This document shows positions 8,166-22,476 of a stretch of DNA of 64,000 nucleotides, piece by piece. The stretch lies in IMG/VR virus record IMGVR_UViG_3300037780_000034, positions 128,001 through 192,000 of that record, one strand, 5' to 3'. Both the position numbers and the translations under genes were made by a program. Within the stretch, counting starts at the first letter, position 1. Every line of letters begins with the position of its first letter. Source of the DNA: a virus (taxonomy: Duplodnaviria; Caudoviricetes). The notes under the pieces are model-generated. The model searched no databases. It was not told the DNA's origin and saw only the letters and a list, made by a program, of their open reading frames with translations.

Positions 8166-8811
8166 GGTATTCGTCTTAGGGAAAACCCGATAATAGACTG
8201 AAAACAGTGAAACGATGCTGGCGAATATGCCTGTAAGTTCTCTGTTAATGATTGATAATGAATGACTACTTTTGTGCAAACAACTGTTATGAAACATTAT
8301 CAAGAATTCTGTTTTCAAATACACAGATATACTAACAGAAGGCTATCCGGAAGTCATTATGCTAAGTTTCTGTGTATCTGAAAACAGATTAGGTCGTCAG
8401 TATAGACTCCATATGCAAGGCCGTTTAAGGGAATCAGGAGTGTCGGCAGCACAAACTTGTTTGTGACGGACTATTCCCTATTAGAATAAACTATGAAAGT
8501 AACTGAAATAGTATCATAGTCGCTCTATGATCTTGGTGCAAATCCAAGCATAGTGAAATCATAGTTTCCAACTTACTAACTTTACGCCTCCTTCAATAGT
8601 AAGTTGGGTTATTTTTCTGCCACTGTAAATGCAATACTTTACAGTGATGGGCTGGATAAAAGGTGAGCAGACATCTTCCAGCACTTTTCTTACAGAACAG
8701 GTGATCCTAGTGTGGAACGGTATATAAATCCCTATCTTATACCAAGGAAAAAAGATTTTAGGGAATCTGGTGCAAATCCTTTCATCACCTTTTCTGTAAG
8801 AAAAAGTTTAT

Positions 8812-8933
8812 TGCATCGTAGCTCAGAGGTAGAGCAGGTGACTGTGGATGCTAAAGGTCATAGGGTCAGTTCGATTCTGACAGCATCAACCGTAATCACT
8901 TGGTCGCAGGTTCGATCCCTGCCGATGCAGCCA
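8812..8933 (+). tRNA. tRNA-Asn(GTT) interrupted by a 47-nt tRNA-like insert (8846-8892)
   Basis: TGCATCG/CGATGCA acceptor, G73, CCA, intact D and T arms; removing the insert gives loop CT-GTT-AA. Confidence 0.8.
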
Positions 8934-9516: not shown

Positions 9517-9646
9517 AGGATCATTTCCGCAATATTTTACTTTGCATCAGAAGCACGTGTTTGCAGGTTCAAGTCCTGCCTCCCCAACCATAATAATTGA
9601 CGGGGAGTAGGCAAATGGTAAAGCCGCGTTAAGTAATATGATCCTG
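9517..9646 (+). ncRNA. cassette 1 carrying a circularly permuted tRNA (CAG, Leu-like)
   Basis: AGGATCAT-TTCCGCAA ... ATGATCCT-G; 3' half 9544-9590 precedes 5' half 9601-9629. Confidence 0.85.
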
Positions 9647-9827
9647 TTATATACTACAGGCTAACTTTTGGGGGTTAGCTTGGTGTTACAGAAGTATAGG
9701 AAATCATTCGGAACCAAATAATGCCTATACCATTTTACGGTTCCAGCAAAACACAGTTGACAACCGATAGAGAATCAGCTACATTACAGACACTGAAAAT
9801 GAAACCACTAACAAAAGGTGAAACACT

Positions 9828-10280
9828 ATGAAGGGCATTGAAGCCAAATATACTGCTAAAGTAATTGCAAAAATGATCAAACATAATCGTTCAATTGAAC
9901 GCAAACATCAGCGTAAAAGTGAACGTGATTTCTTTGATGATGAAAGCTATGTTATTGCAAACTTTACACATAAAGAAGGAAAGAAACTTTCTTCACAATT
10001 TCGTGCATTTATGATCCATAATGCTTTTAAGAAAAATCGTGGATTTACAAGTGCAGAAGTTGCTTATTTTAACCTTGGTGAAAATTCACTGTCTACTATC
10101 AAAGAGAATAAAGAACTATATTCACGATATATGGATAGGTTTAAACGCCAGCAAAAAGCAATTAACATTGTTCGTCATAAACTTCTTGATCATAATGAAC
10201 GTGAAAGTTTTGAAAACTGGCTTAACACAAATGCAATGAATGAAACTTACTTTGACGAAAATTTCCTTCAACCTGCATAA
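9828..10280 (+). CDS. hypothetical protein
   Basis: RBS AAGGTG; promoter just upstream. Confidence 0.7.
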   Translation: MKGIEAKYTAKVIAKMIKHNRSIERKHQRKSERDFFDDESYVIANFTHKEGKKLSSQFRAFMIHNAFKKNRGFTSAEVAYFNLGENSLSTIKENKELYSRYMDRFKRQQKAINIVRHKLLDHNERESFENWLNTNAMNETYFDENFLQPA

Positions 10281-10543
10281 TACTGGTTGACACTGTTGAA
10301 AATCATTGATATAGTGTCAACAACAACAAAACGCTCTTTGACAATTTAACCATCTTCCCTATGCGAAAGCTATGATGGGATAAAAACAGACTTATTGTGT
10401 AAGATGAAGAATCTGTAAATCGCAATTGGTTGTCTGTTTTGAATATGATAGCACCACTTCCGAGTAATCAGATAATAACTGATTATTTCGAGTTAATTAA
10501 TAGTTTGAGCAAACGGATGCTATCATATTCAAAACAGATATAA

Positions 10544-10617
10544 GGCTCTATTGCATTGTGGAATGCAGCGGCTTCTAACCCCGTTTCAAGCAGGTTCGAC
10601 TCCTGTTAGGGCCACCA
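10544..10617 (+). tRNA. probable amber suppressor tRNA (CTA); alternative reading is a distorted Arg(TCT)
   Basis: canonical spacing puts TT-CTA-AC in the loop; C31.C39 mismatch. Confidence 0.65.
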
Positions 10618-10727
10618 AATAAAACCAAATGGAGAGAAAAATGTTCTAGATTTATATACCACCATAACTTCTATTGATTTAAAGTTTAAAGAAAGACCTT
10701 TACTCAAATATCAATAGGAGAAACAAA

Positions 10728-11108
10728 ATGAGTATTCAATTAAAAATTAAAAATAAACATCTTAGTGAAGAAGCACGAATCATACGTTTTGAAGAAAACA
10801 AAATCAAAAAACACGCTCGTAACGTAAGAGAACGTCAAGGGCACCAAACTGCCGATGATATAATGAAAACTTTTCAGTCACTTAGACATCATCGCAGATG
10901 GGACGTTCGTAACGAAAATCGTGCTACTTTTATTGCCAGAGCCTTCATAGAAGGAAAATCATATAAACAAGTTGAAACCAAACGTAATCCAGAGAATGAA
11001 TATACATTTATAGCGTTTGTGTTGCCAAGAGTGTTGACAATGGTAAACAAGTATGGCAATGTCCAGATAACAAAAGAAGAATTACTCAAATGGTGTAATC
11101 AAGAATAA
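10728..11108 (+). CDS. hypothetical basic protein
   Basis: RBS AGGAG. Confidence 0.7.
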   Translation: MSIQLKIKNKHLSEEARIIRFEENKIKKHARNVRERQGHQTADDIMKTFQSLRHHRRWDVRNENRATFIARAFIEGKSYKQVETKRNPENEYTFIAFVLPRVLTMVNKYGNVQITKEELLKWCNQE

Positions 11109-11115
11109 CTAAAAC

Positions 11116-11192
11116 GGAAGCATAGCATAATTGGTTAATGCCCACGTCTCATAAACGTGTTTATCTTGGTTCAAGTCCAAGTGCTTCCACCA
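11116..11192 (+). tRNA. tRNA(CAT), Met or Ile2
   Basis: canonical cloverleaf. Confidence 0.9.
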
Positions 11193-11337
11193 ATATGTTG
11201 AAACTTAATTGTCAGTCTGACGTTTCAATATTAATTAATTAATGACTGGCCAAAGGCTTGATGTGTTAAAAACCTTGTGGTGATGTAATCAAGATAAACC
11301 ACATAAACTCCTTTGTATGAAATGAAATTTCCTCTTT

Positions 11338-11395
11338 AGGATGATTACCGCAAAATTAATAAACTTTTTTTTGGTAAAAGCAGAACATCATCCTG
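11338..11395 (+). ncRNA. cassette 2 with a short hairpin cargo
   Basis: AGGATGAT-TACCGCAA ... ATCATCCT-G. Confidence 0.8.
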
Positions 11396-11407
11396 ATTGT
11401 GTATTGT

Positions 11408-11487
11408 GGGCGAGTGGGCAAATTGGTAAAGTCGGTTCACTCAAAATGAGAGTCATTTTGTCGGTTCGAGTCCGACCTCGCCTACCA
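11408..11487 (+). tRNA. tRNA-Leu(CAA)
   Basis: loop CT-CAA-AA; 8-nt variable region. Confidence 0.9.
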
Positions 11488-11572
11488 ATTTTATCTTATG
11501 AGTTAAGATTTGTTTTAATCATTGAAGTCCCTCTACGGGCACCAACAACTATAAACACTAAAATAGAATAAT

Positions 11573-11647
11573 GCGGACATCGTATAAGGTTATTACGCTT
11601 GGCGACCAGCTAAGAAATACAGGTTAGAATCCTGTTGTCCTGCTCCA
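11573..11647 (+). tRNA. atypical tRNA-Gly (ACC)
   Basis: Gly-type G1-C72, C2-G71, U73; bulged acceptor; loop CG-ACC-AG; T loop TTAGAAT. Confidence 0.65.
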
Positions 11648-11655
11648 AATAACTG

Positions 11656-11684
11656 TTGACACTCACCAGAGAATCAACTATAGT
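11656..11684 (+). promoter_or_regulatory. sigma70-type promoter
   Basis: TTGACA-17-TATAGT. Confidence 0.8.
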
Positions 11685-11708
11685 AACAGTGTAAGAACTA
11701 ATACTTGT

Positions 11709-11785
11709 GGGCCTGTAGCATAATTGGTTAATGCCCAGTGCTCATAACACTGTCAATCGCGGTTCAAGTCCGTGCGGGCCTACCA
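11709..11785 (+). tRNA. tRNA(CAT), Ile2 or Met
   Basis: canonical cloverleaf. Confidence 0.9.
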
Positions 11786-11805
11786 GTATTAGTTTTTGAT
11801 TTTTT

Positions 11806-11864
11806 AGGATGACTTCCGCAAAATTATGCATTTGACCGTTAATCAAAAAAGCAAAATCATCCTG
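11806..11864 (+). ncRNA. cassette 3 carrying an isolated Asn-type anticodon arm
   Basis: AGGATGAC-TTCCGCAA ... TTTGA-CC-GTT-AA-TCAAA ... ATCATCCT-G. Confidence 0.8.
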
Positions 11865-11873
11865 TAATAGAAT

Positions 11874-11967
11874 GGGCGCGTGGCGAAATTGGTTGAAACG
11901 CAAGGCACTTAAAATGCCTCACAGATTAGTGATCACACTGTGGGTTCGAGTCCCACCGCGCCTACCA
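11874..11967 (+). tRNA. tRNA-Leu(TAA)
   Basis: loop CT-TAA-AA; long variable arm. Confidence 0.9.
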
Positions 11968-12026
11968 AAATGTAGTAAACACAAAGAAATTTACTTCTAC
12001 TCATAAATAAGTAGAAGGAGAATTAA

Positions 12027-12467
12027 ATGAGTGATTACTTCAAAAATTATATGAACTTAACAAAAGAAAACAGACAAAGACACTTAGATATATCTTCACC
12101 TTGTGAAGAACGTGGTGGGAATAGCACAATATATAGAGGAGTCCTTGCTCAATATTTAAACACTCCTATCCCGATGGGTAGGATAGCAGTTCTGGCTCAC
12201 GCATGTAACAATAATAAATGTTCTAATCCACAGCATTTATATTGGGCGACAGACAGAGAGAATATAGTAGAAGATGGAAAAAAGTTTGGAACTTTTAAGA
12301 GTGTTTGGGAACGAATGGTAGACAAGCACGGTTATGAAGAAGCTTGTAGGCTACAAGCCAACGGTGCCCAATCAAAGGCAGGACAAGGAAACAAAGGTAA
12401 ACGAAAGTCTGAAGAACATAAGCGCAAAATATCCGAATCTTTAAAAATAAAAAATAGAAAAGAATAA
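12027..12467 (+). CDS. His-Me-finger (HNH-type) homing endonuclease with NUMOD3-like tail
   Basis: HACNNNKCSNPQHL; KRKSEEHKRKISESLK. Confidence 0.8.
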   Translation: MSDYFKNYMNLTKENRQRHLDISSPCEERGGNSTIYRGVLAQYLNTPIPMGRIAVLAHACNNNKCSNPQHLYWATDRENIVEDGKKFGTFKSVWERMVDKHGYEEACRLQANGAQSKAGQGNKGKRKSEEHKRKISESLKIKNRKE

Positions 12468-12538
12468 ATCTTCTAATAATATAAATAATTATAGAAATTT
12501 GCAACCATTATACAACTACCAAAAAGGATTAAAATGTT

Positions 12539-12662
12539 AGGATCATTACCGCAATTTTATTTGCATTTCCAGCCGTAGATGCAGGTGCAATTCCTGCTCA
12601 CCCTACCAATATAAATTATGGGGTGATCGTCTAATAGTAGGACAACGTATAATATGATCCTG
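12539..12662 (+). ncRNA. cassette 4 carrying a circularly permuted tRNA (TTC, Glu-like)
   Basis: AGGATCAT-TACCGCAA ... ATGATCCT-G; 3' half 12563-12608, 5' half 12620-12647. Confidence 0.85.
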
Positions 12663-12697
12663 TTCTTTAAAAAAAAGAAAGTTAATTTAAGTTTTTT

Positions 12698-12816
12698 AGA
12701 TTATGTTCAGCAAACCATATAAATTATATGAAAGCCTATCAACGTTGCCGGAAGGCCCGTATGGCAAACCCAGTTTTCGATTTTCTGGTTCTATAAAAAA
12801 GTAGACACATAATCTG
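12698..12816 (+). ncRNA. cassette 5 with a multi-hairpin cargo
   Basis: AGATTATG-TTCAGCAA ... CATAATCT-G. Confidence 0.8.
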
Positions 12817-12823
12817 TAATAAT

Positions 12824-12900
12824 TGCGGGGTAGACTGGAGAGGTACCCAGCACGGTCTCATAAGCCGATCACGGCGGTTCGAATCCGCCCCCCGCAACCA
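12824..12900 (+). tRNA. initiator-like tRNA-fMet(CAT)
   Basis: TGCGGGG/CCCCGCA-A-CCA; loop CT-CAT-AA. Confidence 0.85.
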
Positions 12901-13164
12901 TTTTTATAAAATGATAATTCCCTTTATTTTTACGAGTTTCCTTTCCGAGTAAAAATATCAAGGTTGAGTTATCATTTTATAAAAATGAGGATATAAATTA
13001 TGGATAAAGAAATACAAGATTTTATAGATTTTTGGAAAGAAAAAGATGTAAAATTACCAAATCCACAAAATTATCCAAAATCTTTTGAATGGTATGTTAC
13101 AATGTGGAAATATCACACAAAATAATATTATAAATACCTATGTAAGTTAACATAGGAGATAATA

Positions 13165-13809
13165 ATGTCATTAATAAGAATTCAACAAATACTAAAAGAT
13201 ATGAACCACGATCCAGGTCCAATTGATGGATTATGGGGAAGCAGAACAAAAGCTGCATTAGAAAGTTTAATACAATGGGAAGGAAAACCAGTAACGGTTA
13301 CTTCCAATTCATCTGATGATGATTTACCTTGGATGATAGAAGGAAAAAAAGTATTTGGGTTTCACGAAGTTAGAAATAATAGTGAATTAAGAAAATGGTT
13401 AAGAAGTGATGGTGCTACTCTTGGTGATCCAAAAGCACTTCCCTGGTGTGGTGATTTTACCGAGACTGCTATAAAAAACTCATTACCAACTGAACCTTTT
13501 ACTGGTAGAATGCTTGAAAATCCATATTGGGCAAGAAATTGGCTTGAATTTGGTCGTGCATCGCCTGCTATATATGGATGCATAGGCGTTTTTAGTAGAG
13601 GCACAGGAGGTCACGTTGGTTTCTTGGTAGGTGAAGATGCAACAGACTATTATGTTTTTGGTGGAAATCAAAGCGATAGTGTTAATATAGTAAGAATAGA
13701 TAAAAAACGTTTACTGGGAACAAGATGGCCATTGACTTACAATATTGTTAATACACCATTACCTAAAAGAGACCCAAAAACTGTAATCAAATCAGTTAAT
13801 GAAATATAA
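13165..13809 (+). CDS. endolysin-like: peptidoglycan-binding domain plus CHAP/NlpC-type domain (TIGR02594-like)
   Basis: PGPIDGLWGSRTKAAL; PWCGDF; GHVGF; GGNQSDSV. Confidence 0.8.
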   Translation: MSLIRIQQILKDMNHDPGPIDGLWGSRTKAALESLIQWEGKPVTVTSNSSDDDLPWMIEGKKVFGFHEVRNNSELRKWLRSDGATLGDPKALPWCGDFTETAIKNSLPTEPFTGRMLENPYWARNWLEFGRASPAIYGCIGVFSRGTGGHVGFLVGEDATDYYVFGGNQSDSVNIVRIDKKRLLGTRWPLTYNIVNTPLPKRDPKTVIKSVNEI

Positions 13810-13818
13810 GGAAAAGTT

Positions 13819-14055
13819 ATGAAAATAGTATTTGCCCAAGGTGCATTTGATGATTTTGATGGAACACAAGAAGAACTTGATAACCTTCTTTCGGAATTAA
13901 AAGAAATGATTGAAAGTGGTTCACTTATGGAAAAAAGTGAACCAGTGGATTTAGACTTATTGCAAGAAGAAAATCCAGAAATATATGAAAAAATTATGAA
14001 GTTTGATAGTTTAGATCAAGATACGTTTGAAAATACTAAAAATAAACTCCATTAA
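13819..14055 (+). CDS. hypothetical acidic protein
   Basis: RBS AAGGA. Confidence 0.65.
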   Translation: MKIVFAQGAFDDFDGTQEELDNLLSELKEMIESGSLMEKSEPVDLDLLQEENPEIYEKIMKFDSLDQDTFENTKNKLH

Positions 14056-14059
14056 TTTT

Positions 14060-14138
14060 GGCCCCATCGTCTACGCTGGTGTTAGGATACTCGGCTTTCA
14101 TCCGAGAGAAGTCGGTTCAATTCCGTCTGGGGCTACCA
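14060..14138 (+). tRNA. tRNA-Glu(TTC)
   Basis: loop CT-TTC-AT; G1-U72, A73. Confidence 0.9.
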
Positions 14139-14145
14139 AAATAAT

Positions 14146-14231
14146 GTGTCGGTGGGTGAGCGGTTTAAACCACCTGACTGTAAATCAGGCGCTGAAAAGC
14201 AACGCTAGTTCGAATCTAGCCCGACACACCA
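14146..14231 (+). tRNA. tRNA-Tyr(GTA)
   Basis: class II cloverleaf. Confidence 0.95.
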
Positions 14232-14273
14232 AATATTATGAGTGCAAAGTTACAAGCACTCAAAACAAATCTT

Positions 14274-14350
14274 GTGCGTGTGTAGCTGAATGGTTAAGCG
14301 CAGGATTGCAAATCCTGATTATGTTGGTTCGAGTCCAATCACGCACTCCA
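14274..14350 (+). tRNA. tRNA-Cys(GCA)
   Basis: GTGCGTG/CACGCAC acceptor, U73; 4-nt instead of 2-nt linker after the acceptor stem. Confidence 0.85.
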
Positions 14351-14389
14351 ATATAGTCTACTCTAATAAATAATAAAAAAGGTAAAAAA

Positions 14390-14560
14390 ATGGAAATATC
14401 TGATAGGATTGAATCTTTAAAAGCAAAACATCGTGAACTTGATAGTAGGATTGAAGTTCTGTATGCTGAAAGAGTAGACGAAAAGTATATAACTTCTCTA
14501 AAAAAAGAAAAGTTAAAGATAAAAGAAGAAATTACTAAGTTACAAAATAGCTTAGTATAA
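14390..14560 (+). CDS. small coiled-coil protein, YdcH/DUF465-like
   Basis: LKAKHRELDSRI...LKKEKLKIKEEI (56 aa, below the ORF-track cutoff). Confidence 0.7.
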   Translation: MEISDRIESLKAKHRELDSRIEVLYAERVDEKYITSLKKEKLKIKEEITKLQNSLV

Positions 14561-14568
14561 AATAATTT

Positions 14569-14653
14569 AGGAATATTTCAGCAAATTTATCTTGGATAAA
14601 ACATTGTTCTCAAAAACAAAGTGAAGTGGTTCAAATCCACATCAATATTCCTG
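14569..14653 (+). ncRNA. cassette 6 enclosing D-, anticodon- and T-like arms without an acceptor end
   Basis: AGGAATAT-TTCAGCAA ... GTGG-TTCAAAT-CCAC ... ATATTCCT-G. Confidence 0.8.
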
Positions 14654-14663
14654 ACTAATATCT

Positions 14664-14774
14664 TGGAACATTACCGCAACTATAACATAAACAATGGGTT
14701 ACAGGTTCAAATCCTGTCTTTTACAGTTTGTAAAAGTAGTTCAATGGTAGAACAATTGTCAAAAAATGTTCCAG
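14664..14774 (+). ncRNA. cassette 7 carrying a permuted tRNA-like RNA with a closed acceptor stem and no CCA
   Basis: TGGAACAT-TACCGCAA ... T arm, CTTTTACA-GTT-TGTAAAAG, D arm ... ATGTTCCA-G. Confidence 0.85.
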
Positions 14775-14782
14775 TATTTTAT

Positions 14783-14856
14783 GGGGGATTAGTTCAATGG
14801 TAGAACAGGTGCTTTACGCGCATCATACAGCAGTTCGATTCTGTTATCCCCTACCA
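14783..14856 (+). tRNA. tRNA-Val(TAC)
   Basis: loop TT-TAC-GC; CCA. Confidence 0.9.
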
Positions 14857-14871
14857 ATATTAGGAAAAAAT

Positions 14872-15309
14872 ATGAATAATAAATGGGATTTAAGATTTTT
14901 AGAATTAGCAAAACATATTGCAGAATGGTCAAAAGACCCAAGCACAAAAGTTGGGTGTGTAATAGTAAGACCAGATAAAACTATTGCGTCTGTTGGTTAC
15001 AATGGATTTCCACGTGGTGTTAATGATGAACCAGAAAGATATAATAATCGTGAGATAAAATATCTTATGGTAAAACACGCAGAAGAGAATGCAGTATACA
15101 GTTCAAAAGAATCATTGACTGGATATACGGCGTATGTTACACACTATCCGTGTTCTAGTTGCACAGGAACACTAATACAAAATGGAATAAAAAGAATTGT
15201 AACACAAAAACCAGATGATAGTTTTGCTTCAAGGTTTCGTGATAGTTTTGAATCATCAAAAATAATGATTAATGAAACTGGTATAGAATTAGTTTTAATA
15301 GAAGATTAA
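14872..15309 (+). CDS. dCMP deaminase
   Basis: SKDPSTKVGC, HAEENA, PCSSC. Confidence 0.9.
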   Translation: MNNKWDLRFLELAKHIAEWSKDPSTKVGCVIVRPDKTIASVGYNGFPRGVNDEPERYNNREIKYLMVKHAEENAVYSSKESLTGYTAYVTHYPCSSCTGTLIQNGIKRIVTQKPDDSFASRFRDSFESSKIMINETGIELVLIED

Positions 15310-15311
15310 AT

Positions 15312-15396
15312 GGGCTAGTGTTGAAATAGGTAGACAATGCGCACTTAGAATGCGTTGCCGAAAGGCGTGGGGGTTCAAGTCCCTCCTAGCCTACCA
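15312..15396 (+). tRNA. tRNA-Leu(TAG)
   Basis: class II cloverleaf. Confidence 0.95.
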
Positions 15397-15414
15397 TTAT
15401 TGAAAGGATACAAA

Positions 15415-15588
15415 ATGAAAAACAAAATAAAAACACCTAAACCACGAAATGAATATGCAATTTCTGCAAGGTTTAGAACAGGTGCTGGTCCTATGCAAAA
15501 ATCTAAGAAAGCACAGAGACAACAAGATAAAATTGCTTTAAAGAAAAAAGGTAAAGACTACTTTAACAATAGAGAAACTATTCTTTAA
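15415..15588 (+). CDS. small basic hypothetical protein
   Basis: RBS AAGGA; KPRNEYA..GAGPM. Confidence 0.6.
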   Translation: MKNKIKTPKPRNEYAISARFRTGAGPMQKSKKAQRQQDKIALKKKGKDYFNNRETIL

Positions 15589-15735
15589 GTAGTCTTGTTT
15601 TATAATATATGAAAGGATATAATATGTTTACATTAATAGTAGGAATAGTAATTGGTGCTTTCATTGGTTGGAATTTTCCACAACCAGAGTTTGCTAGAAA
15701 TATTCAAAATAAGATAAAAAATATTCTAAAATAAT

Positions 15736-16509
15736 GCCACGGTAGCTCAGTCCGGTAGAGCATACAGGTTTGTAAAATAGTAAATATCTAAAAAGGATAT
15801 TTACTATGATTAGAAATAAAATAGAATGTAAAAAATGTGAAAGATTGATAAGTTTATCAAATCATAAAAGACATACACAATCCTGTAATGGCAAAAAAGT
15901 ATCTTCAAACAAAACTATTGAAGAAAATCATATTGATTGGAAAACAATACAAGAAGATTATGACAATGGATTAACATACCGTGGAATAACAGAAAAATAC
16001 AAAATATGTCAACAATCAATATCAAATGCGAGAAAAAAAGGTCTGTTAAAAACACGTTCTAAATCAGAAGCCTCTAAACTTTATTATAAAAATAATACAC
16101 CAAACATAATGAGCGATGAGGCCAGAAAAAGAATTTCTGAAAAAATGTCCGAACATAATCACGGCGGAAGAAGTAAATGGTTTGAGATAGATGGGAAGAA
16201 AGTCCAAGGAACTTGGGAGCTTAACTTTGCCAAATTTTGCAAAGAGAACAACATAGAATGGCAAAGATGCAAACCTTGGAAATATAAAATGGATAAAAAA
16301 ATAAGAAGCTATACACCAGACTTTTATATTCCAAGCAAAAAATTATTTATAGAAATAAAAGGTCATTGGTGGGGAGATGATAGAAGAAAAATGAACTGTG
16401 TAATAGAACAACATCCTGATAAAAACATTCTTATAATAGAAAAAGAGATATACGAACAGATGCTAGATGGAAAATTAGAATGGTGATTCGAATTCACATC
16501 GTGGCACCA
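15736..16509 (+). pseudogene. tRNA-Thr(TGT) split by an endonuclease gene (pieces 15736-15775 and 16482-16509)
   Basis: GCCACGG pairs with TCGTGGC-A-CCA about 700 nt downstream; positions 39-48 are missing. Confidence 0.75.
15806..16486 (+). CDS. PD-(D/E)XK-type putative homing endonuclease
   Basis: YTPDFYI...FIEIKG; N-terminal Zn finger and HTH-like segment. Confidence 0.75.
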   Translation: MIRNKIECKKCERLISLSNHKRHTQSCNGKKVSSNKTIEENHIDWKTIQEDYDNGLTYRGITEKYKICQQSISNARKKGLLKTRSKSEASKLYYKNNTPNIMSDEARKRISEKMSEHNHGGRSKWFEIDGKKVQGTWELNFAKFCKENNIEWQRCKPWKYKMDKKIRSYTPDFYIPSKKLFIEIKGHWWGDDRRKMNCVIEQHPDKNILIIEKEIYEQMLDGKLEW

Positions 16510-16615
16510 TAGTTTTATGATACACTGTCCGCAACAGGTCTTGATGGGGTAGCTTACGAGCAAGCCAAAGTGTAGGTGTAAGTCCTACCGCAGTGTATCA
16601 TAAAAATATAAATAT

Positions 16616-16692
16616 TGTTCTGTAGCACAATTGGTTTAGTGCAGGCGACTGATAATCGTCAGATTCAAGTTCAAATCTTGACAGAACAACCA
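16616..16692 (+). tRNA. tRNA-Ile(GAT)
   Basis: loop CT-GAT-AA. Confidence 0.9.
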
Positions 16693-16701
16693 ACAAATTT
16701 A

Positions 16702-16777
16702 TGGTAGAAGGGAAATTGGCGACCGACCGCACTTTGAATGCGTGTTATTGTAAGTTCGAATCTTACTCTACCAACCA
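16702..16777 (+). tRNA. tRNA-Gln(TTG)
   Basis: U1-A72; loop CT-TTG-AA; weak D arm. Confidence 0.8.
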
Positions 16778-16799
16778 ATATAAAGTAAAAATGAAATAC

Positions 16800-16884
16800 G
16801 GACAAGTGCCCGAGAGGACAAAGGGAACTGACTTTTAATCAGTCGCTATATGCTACGTGGGTTCGAATCCCACCTTGTTCACCA
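16800..16884 (+). tRNA. tRNA-Lys(TTT) with a class II body
   Basis: loop CT-TTT-AA; 13-nt variable region; 3-bp D stem. Confidence 0.85.
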
Positions 16885-16962
16885 AAATATGGTCGAATCA
16901 GATTGACATATACAGTCAACTATGCTATTGTATAGTATATTCAATGAAAGAAAGATATTACT

Positions 16963-17409
16963 ATGAAAATTGAATACCGTCAAGGCGATCTATTTAAAAC
17001 AGAGATTAAAACAATTGTTCACGGATGCAATGCGCAAGGTGTTATGGGGTCTGGGGTTGCGAATATAATTCGTGAACAATATCCAGAAGCATATGAGCGT
17101 TATCGTAATGAGTATGAAAAACATAATTATCTAAAGCTTGGTGATATCATATCAGTTCCTTGTAATTACAAGTTTATTGTAAACGCTATTACACAAGAGT
17201 ATTTTGGGCGTGACAATAAACGATATGTTAGCTATGATGCAGTAGATGACGTTATGGTAAAGTTAAATAAATTTTACGATATATACGGTATTTCAGAAAT
17301 TGCTATGCCAAAAATTGGTGCTGGTTTAGGAAATGGTTCTTGGGAAGTGATAGAAGCAATCATAGAGAATCGTCTTGACACCGTGAAACCAGTAGTGTAT
17401 ACTATGTGA
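16963..17409 (+). CDS. macro domain (ADP-ribose binding/hydrolase) protein
   Basis: GDLF, IVHGCNAQGVMGSGVA, MPKIGAGLGNG. Confidence 0.9.
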   Translation: MKIEYRQGDLFKTEIKTIVHGCNAQGVMGSGVANIIREQYPEAYERYRNEYEKHNYLKLGDIISVPCNYKFIVNAITQEYFGRDNKRYVSYDAVDDVMVKLNKFYDIYGISEIAMPKIGAGLGNGSWEVIEAIIENRLDTVKPVVYTM

Positions 17410-17420
17410 TATGAAATAAT

Positions 17421-17497
17421 CTCCACGTAGCTCAACTGGACAGAGCGAGTGACTTCTAATCACTAGGTTGAGGGTTCGATTCCTTCCGTGGAGGCCA
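17421..17497 (+). tRNA. tRNA-Arg(TCT)
   Basis: canonical cloverleaf. Confidence 0.95.
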
Positions 17498-17561
17498 TTT
17501 CTTATACTACCTTATACCCTACTAACAGGTATAAATACCTATGAACTAGGAGAATACTATA

Positions 17562-17957
17562 ATGAGCATTTCAAACCAAAAAGGTGATATAGGGGAAGCA
17601 CATTTTGTTTTAAGGGCTACTGAAAAGGGATATTGGACTGGAAAAATGCCACAAGACTGCCCTTATGATTTTGTATTGGATAGAGGAAAAGGATTAGAGC
17701 GTGTTCAGGTAAAATACAGGTCTAGTGCAAAAAAAGGTTCAATACAAATTAATTCCTTTAATTCAAGTCCGCAATCAAATAGAACATATAACGGTTTCGT
17801 TGATCAATTTGCAGTATATAACCCAGAAACATCAGAAGTATATCTTATTCCAGCTAATTTAGTAATGGAATCTGGTGCTTCTATTTTTAGAGTAGAATAT
17901 CCTAAAAATAATCAACTAAAAGGTGTAACTTTTCTTTCTGAATTCAAAGAATGGTAG
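17562..17957 (+). CDS. PD-(D/E)XK endonuclease (group I intron-associated type)
   Basis: KGDIGE, YDFVLD, RVQVKY. Confidence 0.8.
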   Translation: MSISNQKGDIGEAHFVLRATEKGYWTGKMPQDCPYDFVLDRGKGLERVQVKYRSSAKKGSIQINSFNSSPQSNRTYNGFVDQFAVYNPETSEVYLIPANLVMESGASIFRVEYPKNNQLKGVTFLSEFKEW

Positions 17958-18096
17958 TTCGAATCTTACTTGCAGCACCAATAAAAATATTGTATTGAAC
18001 CCCACTATTCATATGCTGAGTGTTTTAGACCTGACACTGTGAAGCGAATATGCGTTCAATACCTGCTAGGGGAATTGGTCCCTCCTAGTCAGTTTT

Positions 18097-18170
18097 GGCC
18101 CCTTGGTATATGGATATTACGCTCGGCTGTCTACCGGGAAAAACGGGTTTGAGTCCCGTAGGGGTCGCCA
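18097..18170 (+). tRNA. tRNA-Asp(GTC)
   Basis: loop CT-GTC-TA; G73. Confidence 0.9.
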
Positions 18171-18577
18171 ATATAGACTGTGACGTAATCGGCCCTTGTG
18201 AGGAACGCTCCCGTAACCAGTCGGGTTAAAGTTGCAAACAACCCAGTCTATAAAATAAAGTCCTATGTCCGACTTACCGATTTTGGTATTTTGGCTTAGG
18301 CACCAGTTTGATCTAGATACTTTTATTTTTGGAGCAAGAGTAGTCGTGTGTGATGATAAAAATGAAAGTCGTTTCAATGCTAGACAACATTCGGTTCAAG
18401 GACGTGCGAACCAGTATTATGACACCTGCACGTTGACCCTGAAACCAGTGTGCAGCATTATACGATGGGTAACAGTCTGGAGAGTGACAGACATATATGC
18501 GAAAAGGGTTTTTAGTAGTATGTGGTAATTCTTAAACCCTGAAATATCCATTAAGATCGTCGGTAGGCCACATATTT

Positions 18578-18652
18578 GGGGGATTGGTGAAATCAGGATC
18601 ACGTAGGTGTTGCATACCTAAATTATCGGGGCAGGTCCGATATCCTCCACCA
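18578..18652 (+). tRNA. tRNA-Ala(TGC) with a non-canonical T loop
   Basis: G3.U70, A73; loop GT-TGC-AT; T loop GGCAGGT. Confidence 0.8.
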
Positions 18653-18812
18653 TATAAATAAAGGATATGTTATGATTGGTTTAATATTTTTATCATTTAG
18701 TCCATTGTTTTTGATAGCATCAAATGACTATTTTGGTAAAATTTCTTCTATAATTTGTGCTGTTATTGGCATAACCATAATAACTATATCTCTGTTAATG
18801 TAAGGAATAAAA

Positions 18813-19142
18813 ATGTCATATGAAAAACCACTTCCTAAACCATTATATCCGCCAGTTGACCAAGGTTCACTAAAAGCTTTTGAATATTACAAAGAATTTA
18901 TAGAATATCTTGGAGCAAAGCCGGTAAATCATACTGAAATAGAAAATGGTGATACCACAAGTTTAGAACATTTGTTATGGATGTGTAATCATTGTATACC
19001 AAGAATTCGTGATGATGGATTAGGATTTAATGTTTCTAAGTATTCACGATGGTTAGGATACATACAAGGTTGTTTAATTTGTAAAGGTTACACAAGTGTA
19101 GCACAAGAAAGAGACAGAACAAGAAACTTTTTTAATGAATAA
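18813..19142 (+). CDS. hypothetical protein
   Basis: RBS AAGGA. Confidence 0.65.
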   Translation: MSYEKPLPKPLYPPVDQGSLKAFEYYKEFIEYLGAKPVNHTEIENGDTTSLEHLLWMCNHCIPRIRDDGLGFNVSKYSRWLGYIQGCLICKGYTSVAQERDRTRNFFNE

Positions 19143-19148
19143 TCTTTT

Positions 19149-19368
19149 TGGATCAGTTCAGCAAACAATATTTCCGTGAAAAGGACCGTGACGGTGGTGC
19201 AAATCCGCCCTTCCCCGCCACAGATACACTATGACAACATAGACGGGTTAATCGCCGTAGGAACGAAGCAGTTTCCAAACCAACGATAGGAAGAGTTTGT
19301 CGTCTTCTGTAGTGTATCTTTGACGGGGAAGTAGCTCAGTTAGTAGAGCAGGTAAAAAGTTGATCCAG
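19149..19368 (+). ncRNA. cassette 8 carrying a circularly permuted tRNA-Phe(GAA)
   Basis: TGGATCAG-TTCAGCAA ... TTGATCCA-G; 3' half 19174-19220, 5' half 19325-19353. Confidence 0.85.
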
Positions 19369-19656
19369 TTAATATAATAAAGAATCGTCTAGCCATCTTA
19401 TTACAGCGTGATCCAAAACAAGTTTAGCATCTTCAACTGATATATTAAACCATTCTCCACTTATTCTTTTGTAAGATATCTCACTATGTATTTTACTTTC
19501 CATAATTCTTGTTTTTTCATCTGGAATTTCAACATAATAATGAAGATAAAGTTTATCTGGATTTCCAGTTTGTAGGTTCTTTAGCCTACGATGTGGGTCT
19601 TTTGCAAACCCAATCTTTTGACGATTTTCATTGTTACCTATAATATAAATATACAT
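19369..19656 (-). CDS. small GIY-YIG nuclease (T5orf172-like)
   Basis: YIYII...KIGFAKDPHRRLKNLQTGNP...GEWF. Confidence 0.85.
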   Translation of the reverse strand: MYIYIIGNNENRQKIGFAKDPHRRLKNLQTGNPDKLYLHYYVEIPDEKTRIMESKIHSEISYKRISGEWFNISVEDAKLVLDHAVIRWLDDSLLY

Positions 19657-21607: not shown

Positions 21608-22276
21608 TCAAGACAAAGGTAACTGGATGGAAATATAAATTTGTGATATTTCTAATTCAATTATTTTTTTTTGTTCTTCTAATTTTTTAATTTTTTTATT
21701 TATATTATCCAACTTTTTTTCTAATAATAATTTTTCTTTTTTTTTATTTTCGTTTATCTTTTTATCATATGATTTCCAAGAAACAATTCTTTTTTTAATA
21801 TATCCATTTTCAAGGTATGTTTCAATTTCTTCTGGTTTTACCTTGCAGCAGTGGCGTTCTTTTATATTGCTCATCCAAATTGTCCCATATTGACTATTGC
21901 CTTTTCCTGTTTGCGATTCGGACATTATGATACCTATATTTTTTCTTGCTCTTTCATATAGTCTTGTATTGACATATCTTTTTTGTGAGGATGATGAAGA
22001 ATACATACAAGTGAATGCTCTTACAACCTTTTTCCATCCATAACTTCCTTCATTAAGCATTTTGCAAAGCAAGTAATGACATAAAAAATGTTCACGAGCA
22101 GTGAGAAGAACAAGATTATTATTTTCGTCGGAGCCTCCGAGAGATTTTGGAATTATATGATGATTTTCGTAATAAACGTATGATTTATGCGTTGACCTTC
22201 TTTTTATTCTTCCGTTGATTTTTGCATTTTGTATTATTTTATAATATAATTTTGTATACTTATTAGTTAAAAACAT
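21608..22276 (-). CDS. HNH homing endonuclease (Mob-like)
   Basis: ENHHIIPKSLGGSD...LTAREHFLCHYLL; start MFLTNKY after RBS GAGGT. Confidence 0.85.
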   Translation of the reverse strand: MFLTNKYTKLYYKIIQNAKINGRIKRRSTHKSYVYYENHHIIPKSLGGSDENNNLVLLTAREHFLCHYLLCKMLNEGSYGWKKVVRAFTCMYSSSSSQKRYVNTRLYERARKNIGIIMSESQTGKGNSQYGTIWMSNIKERHCCKVKPEEIETYLENGYIKKRIVSWKSYDKKINENKKKEKLLLEKKLDNINKKIKKLEEQKKIIELEISQIYISIQLPLS

Positions 22277-22384
22277 ATTTACGAACCTCTTTTTTATTTT
22301 ATTTATAAAATTTATGGGTTCGCAGAATCCTTGAACACTATTGAATAGTTTGGTAATTTGGATGACGATAGAGGAACCAATAAA

Positions 22385-22476
22385 GGTCATATGACAGAGT
22401 GGTTGATTGTGCCTGATTGGAAATCAGGTGAACGTATAATAGCGTTCCATAGGTTCGAATCCTATTGTGACCGCCA
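22385..22476 (+). tRNA. tRNA-Ser(GGA)
   Basis: class II cloverleaf, G73. Confidence 0.95.

Follow-up and report, generated by a model that had tools for sequence, protein, structure and literature searches.

A permuted tRNA-Leu-like cassette in a phage tRNA array is most likely a Y-RNA-like tRNA mimic on a shared handle

In the stretch of viral DNA analyzed here (64,000 nucleotides (nt), positions 128,001 to 192,000 of IMG/VR record IMGVR_UViG_3300037780_000034; hereafter the window), a cassette at 9517-9646 downstream of a tRNA-Gly gene carries the 3' half of a transfer RNA (tRNA), ending in ACCA, in front of its own 5' half. Despite this tRNA-like content, the cassette is most likely not a working tRNA gene; we consider it to encode a Y-RNA-like tRNA mimic of about 130 nt that is mounted on a paired terminal handle. 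This reading is carried by the fold of the cassette, by a family of nine elements that have the handle in common, by relatives with sealed acceptors and shifting anticodon-like triplets, and by a genomic link to a protein with a Ro60 fold, which is probably the partner of the handle. The virus record comes from a pond metagenome and is 318 kb long; all positions without a prefix are those of the window.

An initial annotation had described the cassette as a circularly permuted, Leu-like tRNA gene with anticodon CAG, and as a description of the DNA this was accurate. A full tRNA anatomy is present in permuted order with each named element in its place, including the 3' half (9544-9590), the 10-nt spacer, the 5' half (9601-9629), the C1.A72 mismatch and the short variable loop; the linkers TTACTT and AAGTAA (9537-9542 with 9631-9636) pair, the D arm resembles that of the tRNA-Leu(CAA) at 11408, and no other CAG tRNA was called in the window. 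After joining of the halves ARAGORN called a tRNA-Leu(cag) of 76 nt, which agrees with the annotated likeness. However, brute-force ARAGORN runs over many alternative junctions returned calls with many different anticodons, so that the call on the chosen join says little about identity. The outer 8-bp stem, AGGATCAT/ATGATCCT, and the motif CATTTCCGCAA had been little stressed, and it is these that define the family described below. The 6-bp helix formed by leader and trailer meets the anticodon stem as a three-way junction between positions 29 and 30 that has no 3-nt bulges, and a bulge-helix-bulge was not found at this junction. The minimum-free-energy fold of the cassette (-35.1 kcal/mol) was not the cloverleaf-on-handle fold (-29.1 kcal/mol); such a gap is usual for tRNAs and was counted neither way. 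The parts of the cassette and its paralogues are listed in Table 1.

The handle recurs throughout the tRNA array in which the cassette lies (8.8-22.5 kb of the window, 24 tRNA genes). A scan for the stem plus [AT]C[AC]GCAA gave nine elements, all on the + strand and all within 10 kb (9517 to 19418), each 3-15 nt from neighbouring tRNA genes. In the rest of the 318-kb genome stem-plus-motif matches occurred only at background level, with about 14 in shuffled whole genomes. All nine elements have the same co-varying terminal stem and the motif TWCMGCAA, and their cargo can be as small as a 30-nt hairpin or as large as a tRNA body: three carry open tRNA bodies (with CCA and a spacer in the acceptor loop), one a sealed body, one a T arm only, two of about 57 nt carry short hairpins, and two carry other cargo. 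The stem reads TGGAACAT/ATGTTCCA at 14664 and AGGATGAT/ATCATCCT at 11338, and it also co-varies in relatives. Within the motif, C6, C9, A10 and A11 are present in all nine window elements and T3 in six of them. The cassette itself has the whole family signature, namely the co-varying terminal stem, TWCMGCAA on the 5' side, an AG start and a CTG(T/A) end. Among the handle RNAs it stands out by having both a complete anticodon arm and an encoded CCA. A search of the genome against itself showed that the paralogue cas2 (12539-12662) is 71% identical to the cassette, with acceptor and D stem differing by compensatory changes. A sealed acceptor without CCA, as in the paralogue cas3 (14664) and in the relatives L013, L136, L144, L152, L180 and L149, cannot be charged, and an element with such an acceptor therefore cannot be a tRNA. 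We found no published description of the handle family.

Relatives were recovered from viral and metagenome contigs with handle-based patterns (loci are given as L numbers). A loose pattern, CATTWCCGCAA...GGTTCRA, returned 117 loci that were nearly all chance matches, the real ones being L013 and L105 only, while a tighter pattern returned 47 loci, of which 13 were real; the 34 chance loci served as control. Other routes were less productive: the GenBank phage collection held no close DNA relatives, with matches only to the neighbouring tRNA genes, an exact 28-mer of T arm and acceptor had no match in viral contigs, and loci reached via the lysozyme-like protein at 13165 lacked both synteny and handle elements. 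The sequencing runs listed for the region are all DNA runs, from pond, estuary and unspecified metagenomes.

The relatives fall beside individual window elements and show what is kept and what is exchanged. Two orthologues, L170 and L173, are nearly identical to the cassette; U1.G72 replaces C1.A72 in them, and the triplets of this group are all Leu (CAG in the cassette and L173, TAG in L170). The orthologue of cas2 (L134:3397-3521) has the acceptor GGGCAGT/ACTGCCC and the loop ATTCCAA, with a TCC triplet where cas2 has TTC; both triplets duplicate canonical tRNAs in the same arrays. A third orthologous group with identical flanks comprises the open members L137 and L166 (ACCA and a 10-nt spacer) and the sealed members L136, L144, L152 and L180 (4-5-nt loops), and its loop triplets are TCG, TGA and CAG (Arg, Ser and Leu) on essentially one body. 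The spacers of open relatives are A/T-rich and 10-11 nt long. The triplets change, but a T always occupies the U33 position; shifting triplets in a fixed U33-type loop would be more readily expected of a decoy or adaptor than of a decoder. Three of the short handle elements (11806-11863, L134:2387-2446 and L166 ~8420-8480(-)) have as their sole cargo a 4-bp hairpin with a 7-nt loop resembling an anticodon loop, which reads CCGTTAA in the window and CTTGTAA in the two relatives.

We examined co-variation in an alignment of 11 sequences, which excludes the sealed members without anticodon hairpin because these were misaligned by MAFFT. In this alignment 96.2% of cells pair; shuffles reach 77%, and controls with slid partners 34-43%. 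Of the 24 pairs, 12 are changed on both sides. RNAalifold recovered the handle, the mini anticodon hairpin and the T, acceptor and D stems. The arrangement of the cassette is thus far beyond chance. Little handle-stem variation was seen here, because the loci had been picked by handle sequence, and co-variation of the handle was instead observed among the window paralogues. The doubly changed pairs include five of the seven acceptor pairs that link the two halves; the initial annotation had named halves that fail to co-vary in related phages as grounds for giving up its reading, and the halves do co-vary. This co-variation shows that the halves fold together and does not speak to their processing.

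A further signal lies in the tertiary contact between D and T loops. All 24 canonical tRNAs of the window combine a TTC T-loop with a GG D-loop, while five mimics from at least three lineages (12539-12662, 19149-19368, L137, L152 and L166) have a TGC T-loop (G55), always with an AG D-loop (A18). The joint occurrence of TGC and AG amounts to co-variation at the 18:55 contact and marks these RNAs as L-shaped, under constraints unlike those of real tRNAs. Of separate interest, G55 would also remove U55, the target of TruB. An inert remnant of tandem tRNA duplication or recombination, in other words a pseudogene, would account for a spacer that resembles an inter-tRNA spacer and would suit an array through which homing endonuclease genes are scattered, but orthologues from separate metagenomes keep every helix and the 71% identical paralogues differ by compensatory changes, which makes such a remnant extremely improbable.

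The same data bear on the possibility that the cassette is a true circularly permuted tRNA-Leu(CAG). Here the handle would be a processing signal, the transcript would be cut at 29/30, the circle would be sealed (by Rnl1, for instance), and ribonuclease P (RNase P) and trimming would open the acceptor. The complete anatomy and the ARAGORN call agree with this, as do the conserved A73-CCA with its inter-tRNA-like spacer and the orthologue in which CAG changes to TAG and stays Leu. Moreover, triplet and body type agree for Leu, Glu and Phe in the window, no canonical Phe or Leu(CAG) tRNA is present there, and the record encodes Rnl1-type and Rnl2-type ligases as well as a CCA-adding-like enzyme. 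Against it stands that the same handle also bears non-tRNA cargo and sealed acceptors, that on one body the triplet moves among Ser, Arg and Leu while the cas2 pair shows a change from Glu to Gly, and that TTC and TCC add nothing to the canonical tRNAs of their arrays. The junction would have to be cut and sealed inside a stem, whereas T4 Rnl1 seals nicks in the anticodon loop and is not known to seal them in stems; neither a splicing endonuclease (PF01974) nor RtcB (PF01139) was found in the 318-kb record (85% complete). Bacterial Leu tRNAs have longer variable loops than the cassette, and the G55 of some mimics is unlike any canonical tRNA here. There is also little need for a CAG decoder, as CUG makes up 2.2 per 1000 codons (35.5 for UUA) in a genome of 31% GC. 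Taken together, we regard a true permuted tRNA as highly improbable: what the initial annotation had said about order, anatomy and co-variation stands, and what it had proposed about a Leu-decoding gene matured by cutting and joining is not supported.

Soma et al. (2007) and Chan et al. (2011) are said to have described circularly permuted tRNA genes in Cyanidioschyzon merolae, some green algae and Thermofilum pendens. The cassette is like such genes in that the 3' half lies upstream on the same strand, a short spacer leads from the CCA or discriminator to position 1, and the leader pairs with the trailer. In those hosts a bulge-helix-bulge is cut by a splicing endonuclease and the breaks are mostly in loops. 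The cassette differs in its three-way junction in the anticodon stem, its bacterial host, the absence of an encoded endonuclease, and a handle that is also found on non-tRNA and sealed cargo.

The second line of evidence for a Y-RNA-like mimic is a protein. The record encodes a protein of 475 amino acids with DUF2828 and DUF7788 (G000:C1:85209-86636). A sequence search with this protein against the PDB gave no match, and only a fold search led to Ro60: with the AlphaFold model (predicted local distance difference test, pLDDT, 83; predicted template modelling score, pTM, 0.83) the 13 best PDB fold matches were Ro60 only, at full length, from Thermus phage phiLo, Xenopus, human and Deinococcus (E values of 1e-8 to 2e-5, template modelling (TM) scores of 0.38-0.64). 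In relatives the gene and the RNAs lie together. The DUF2828 gene adjoins the mimic in 8 of the 13 real loci from the RNA pattern and in none of the 34 chance loci, at a distance of 17 nt in L013, 27 nt in L136/L174, 30 nt in L166, 33 nt in L137, and at most about 250 nt in L160, L180, L144 and L154. Conversely, both of the two DUF2828 loci picked by protein alone have two handle elements each, which follow closely downstream. The DUF2828/DUF7788 protein is encoded in four of five related virus records, the fifth being a 7%-complete fragment. The family is very large, since 7972 of 8000 scored candidates matched at E<=1e-5, and a literature search for DUF2828 returned no relevant paper and no source with a functional name for the family. 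In L137, a complete relative of 195 kb, three consecutive handle RNAs come after the Ro60-like gene (among them L137:9987-10099(-) and L137:9477-9572(-)); one is an open tRNA mimic, one is a sealed mimic, and the remaining one carries a D-arm-like and a T-arm-like hairpin.

These loci also bear on whether the handle could be a processing or stability element of the tRNA operon, that is, an RNase site or transcript punctuation with tRNA-derived filler that has no role of its own. The 3-15-nt distance to tRNA genes, the conserved AG start and CTGT end and the terminator-like hairpin after the cassette would all suit this possibility. We nevertheless consider it very unlikely, because handle elements border the Ro60-like gene in L193, a locus without tRNAs, and because the cargo helices, including the 18:55 tertiary pair, co-vary in a manner not expected of filler.

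Among known RNAs the closest counterpart is YrlA, which consists of a terminal stem with the 5' motif GNCGAAN0-1G and of a T arm, an acceptor-like stem and a D arm, and which mimics tRNA (Chen et al. 2014, PMC4201824). The best Rfam match of the cassette is YrlA (RF02553; 21.4 bits, model positions 23-89), and cas3 matches it over the full model (14673-14778, 31.5 bits). The YrlA order of T arm, acceptor-like stem and D arm between the terminal-stem strands is that of the cassette, which also has paired ends, a single-stranded 5' motif and an accompanying Ro60-fold gene. Such gene pairs have been seen in phages before: the Ro60 of phage phiLo binds the phage Y-like RNAs Yrl1 and Yrl2 (PMC12135203), and some jumbo phages have ROT/TROVE proteins "with a tRNA-like partner" (PMC7824862). 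The setting of YrlA and Ro60 is RNA repair, and here, too, a gene for an RNA ligase is found close to the Ro-like gene. Unlike in YrlA, the CCA is encoded and not added, a full anticodon-like hairpin branches from the stem, and there are nine copies with varied cargo inside a tRNA array; the protein is a DUF2828/DUF7788 protein, and its gene is about 50 kb away.

The handle on its own resembles that of the Class I RNAs of Dictyostelium and other dictyostelid social amoebae. These are RNAs of 42-65 nt with an (A)AG start, a 6-bp co-varying stem, an 11-nt motif with T3, C6, C9, A10 and A11, and a CUGU end; they are eukaryotic, have been reported to be unique to Dictyostelia, and have the RNA recognition motif (RRM) protein Rnp1A as known binder (PMC7919456). 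The cassette has the same AG start, a co-varying terminal stem, CATTTCCGCAA with the same five positions, the CTGT end and variable cargo in the family; in the CUGU end of Class I RNAs the C pairs with the 5' G. The differences are also clear, as the cassette is 130 nt long and lies in a phage tRNA array, in contrast to the length of Class I RNAs, their DUSE (Dictyostelium upstream sequence element) promoter and their lack of tRNA-like cargo. Going by sequence, the likeness would be a signature match that need not imply common descent. It also speaks against a permuted tRNA, because Class I RNAs retain this handle when mature (PMC7919456).

Several observations weigh against the reading as a Y-RNA-like mimic. 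The 21.4 bits of the cassette fall far short of the Rfam gathering score for YrlA, which is 69 bits and is not reached by the 31.5 bits of cas3 either, and the YrlA motif GNCGAAN0-1G is absent from the cassette, which has CATTTCCGCAA, or TWCMGCAA, instead. Pfam TROVE matched neither the DUF2828/DUF7788 protein nor anything in the 318-kb record, and the Ro60-like gene is not adjoining the RNAs in this genome. A T4 Rnl1-type RNA ligase is encoded three genes upstream of the Ro60-like gene, with an Acb1-like 2H phosphoesterase nearby; Rnl1 was not found beside DUF2828 in the relatives' loci, so the link is a single observation in this genome. Furthermore, NCCA is strictly kept after the 7-bp stem in four lineages and the anticodon loop is well formed (T at U33, purine at the 37 position), as would suit a molecule with real tRNA ends and a real anticodon arm, and the triplet matches the body type in three window elements (Leu, Glu and Phe). 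As an observation on the ligase itself, the Rnl1-type gene (G000:C1:83092-84232, ~45 kb upstream of the window) is split into two overlapping reading frames, one of 196 amino acids with the nucleotidyltransferase domain and one of 198 amino acids with a weak match to the Rnl1 C-terminal domain, and a frameshift, a sequencing error and a genuine split are all possible.

The strict conservation of NCCA raises the possibility of a chargeable tRNA-like RNA in two pieces, in which RNase P would open the acceptor loop, no ligation would follow, and the CCA end would be aminoacylated for a non-decoding role, much as in two-piece transfer-messenger RNA (tmRNA). A precedent for the first step is YrlA of Mycobacterium smegmatis: RNase P cuts this RNA, whose acceptor stem has 7 bp, and CCA is then gained (PMC4201824). 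The weak first pair, C1.A72 or U1.G72, is likewise conserved, and a part of cas2 faintly matches the permuted tmRNA model. Two-piece tmRNA (RF04321), made from permuted ssrA genes, is a bacterial example of a permuted tRNA-like gene, in which the CCA-ended acceptor piece comes first and RNase P and trimming take out what lies between the pieces, but the cassette has no tag reading frame or pseudoknots and is only 130 nt long. The cas2 match was the sole one to RF04321 and reached 14.1 bits against a threshold of 47, and ARAGORN found no tmRNA. In addition, close relatives of open members are sealed and have no end at all (L152 versus L137), so charging cannot be the general function of the family. 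We consider a two-piece chargeable RNA unlikely. It is quite unlikely that the open members (9517, 12539 and 19149) are charged, whether in two pieces on the Ro60-like ring or as working tRNAs freed of the handle and sealed by the Rnl1-type ligase. Should the case of working tRNAs hold, a bacterial virus would for the first time be known to have circularly permuted tRNA genes, and a new signal would stand where other such genes have the bulge-helix-bulge.

For the Y-RNA-like mimic, the following scheme may be proposed. The RNA would probably be released from a tRNA operon transcript with the order Ser-Pro-Gly-cassette-terminator. Its ends pair to form the handle of 8 bp, the 5' strand of which leads into the single-stranded motif, and the handle would form the docking site for the Ro60-like ring. 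The cargo is a body derived from tRNA-Leu that runs from a stem strand through variable loop, T arm, acceptor and D arm back to the stem, and it is this YrlA-type wiring that makes the tRNA halves look swapped. The body may then engage factors that bind tRNA, such as anticodon nucleases, repair or modification enzymes, and RNase P, and would not decode CUG. Candidate targets are anticodon nucleases, for which it could be a decoy, the nearby RNA ligase, for which it could be a repair platform, and modification enzymes. Four lineages retain A73-CCA behind a 7-bp stem together with an unstructured spacer, and for this reason the acceptor loop of open members is probably opened by RNase P with 3' trimming; a two-piece RNA with a free CCA end would remain, similar to what has been reported for M. 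smegmatis YrlA.

Some further features of the array were observed. A tRNA of 119 nt at 8812-8930, called by Rfam and missed by ARAGORN, has an insert of ~47 nt in its anticodon region, and this insert itself holds a T-arm-like hairpin, GTCAGTTCGATTCTGAC. At 10544-10617 there is a tRNA of the amber-suppressor type with anticodon CTA (ARAGORN label 'Pyl'), and at 16702-16774 another tRNA was found by Rfam only (36.5 bits; loop TTG, Gln-like) and missed by ARAGORN. Genes for HNH, endonuclease-I-like and PD-(D/E)XK endonucleases and a Macro-domain gene are interspersed in the array (12027-12467, 15806-16486, 17562-17957, 21608-22390(-) and 16963-17409).

Table 1. Parts of the cassette and paralogous handle elements in the window.
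Feature	Position	Strand	Remarks
Handle stem, 5' strand AGGATCAT	9517-9524	+	8 bp with 9638-9645
Conserved single-stranded handle motif CATTTCCGCAA	9522-9532	+	family consensus TWCMGCAA; in 9/9 window elements and in relatives
Second helix, 5' strand TTACTT	9537-9542	+	pairs with AAGTAA 9631-9636
Anticodon-like hairpin GC-ATCAGAA-GC	9544-9554	+	U33-like T 9547, CAG 9548-9550, A37-like A 9551; hairpin predicted by RNAalifold
Upper anticodon stem, 3' strand ACG	9555-9557	+	partner CGT 9627-9629
Variable loop	9558-9562	+	5 nt
Canonical T arm GCAGG TTCAAGT CCTGC	9563-9579	+	compensatory changes in 3/5 pairs
Acceptor 3' strand CTCCCCA, then discriminator A73 and CCA	9580-9586, 9587-9590	+	
Spacer TAATAATTGA, from CCA to position 1	9591-9600	+	A/T-rich, 10 nt; putative RNase P leader and 3' trailer
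Acceptor 5' strand CGGGGAG	9601-9607	+	C1.A72 mismatch
Leu-type D arm GGC AAATGGTAAA GCC	9610-9625	+	
Upper anticodon stem, 5' strand CGT	9627-9629	+	completes the anticodon stem
Second helix, 3' strand AAGTAA	9631-9636	+	
Handle stem, 3' strand ATGATCCT, then GT	9638-9647	+	element end is CTGT
Terminator-like hairpin and T-rich tail right after cassette	9643-9669	+	consensus match only
Handle element, short non-tRNA cargo	11338-11394	+	orthologues in L105 and L134
Handle element, cargo a single anticodon-arm-like hairpin	11806-11863	+	
cas2 paralogue, open tRNA body	12539-12662	+	Glu-like D arm; loop ATTTCCA; acceptor GGGGTGA/TCACCCT, then ACCA
Handle element, other structured cargo	12698-12815	+	
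Handle element, T-arm-like hairpin only	14569-14652	+	orthologue L105:5878-5960
cas3 paralogue, tRNA body with sealed acceptor	14664-14773	+	5-nt acceptor loop, no CCA, no anticodon hairpin; found by Rfam YrlA model
Handle element, other cargo	16518-16600	+	10-bp stem
Paralogue with Phe-like body	19149-19368	+	loop GTGAAAA (GAA), GCCA, 104-nt structured spacer

For the naming of such cassettes, our analysis indicates that anatomy alone is insufficient to annotate them as permuted tRNA genes. Y RNAs with a tRNA-like part are known from bacteria and a few phages. The handle family presents this part as a graded series on one handle, from bare anticodon-arm hairpins via sealed bodies to open bodies in which the CCA is encoded and the anticodon arm is complete. 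It also ties DUF2828/DUF7788, a very large unstudied family, to a Ro60-like fold and a defined candidate RNA partner, and the likeness of the handle to the orphan Class I RNAs raises the question whether those, too, are Y-like. Finally, switching of the anticodon together with opening and closing of the acceptor is the pattern that would be expected of a decoy or adaptor evolving against tRNA-targeting factors.

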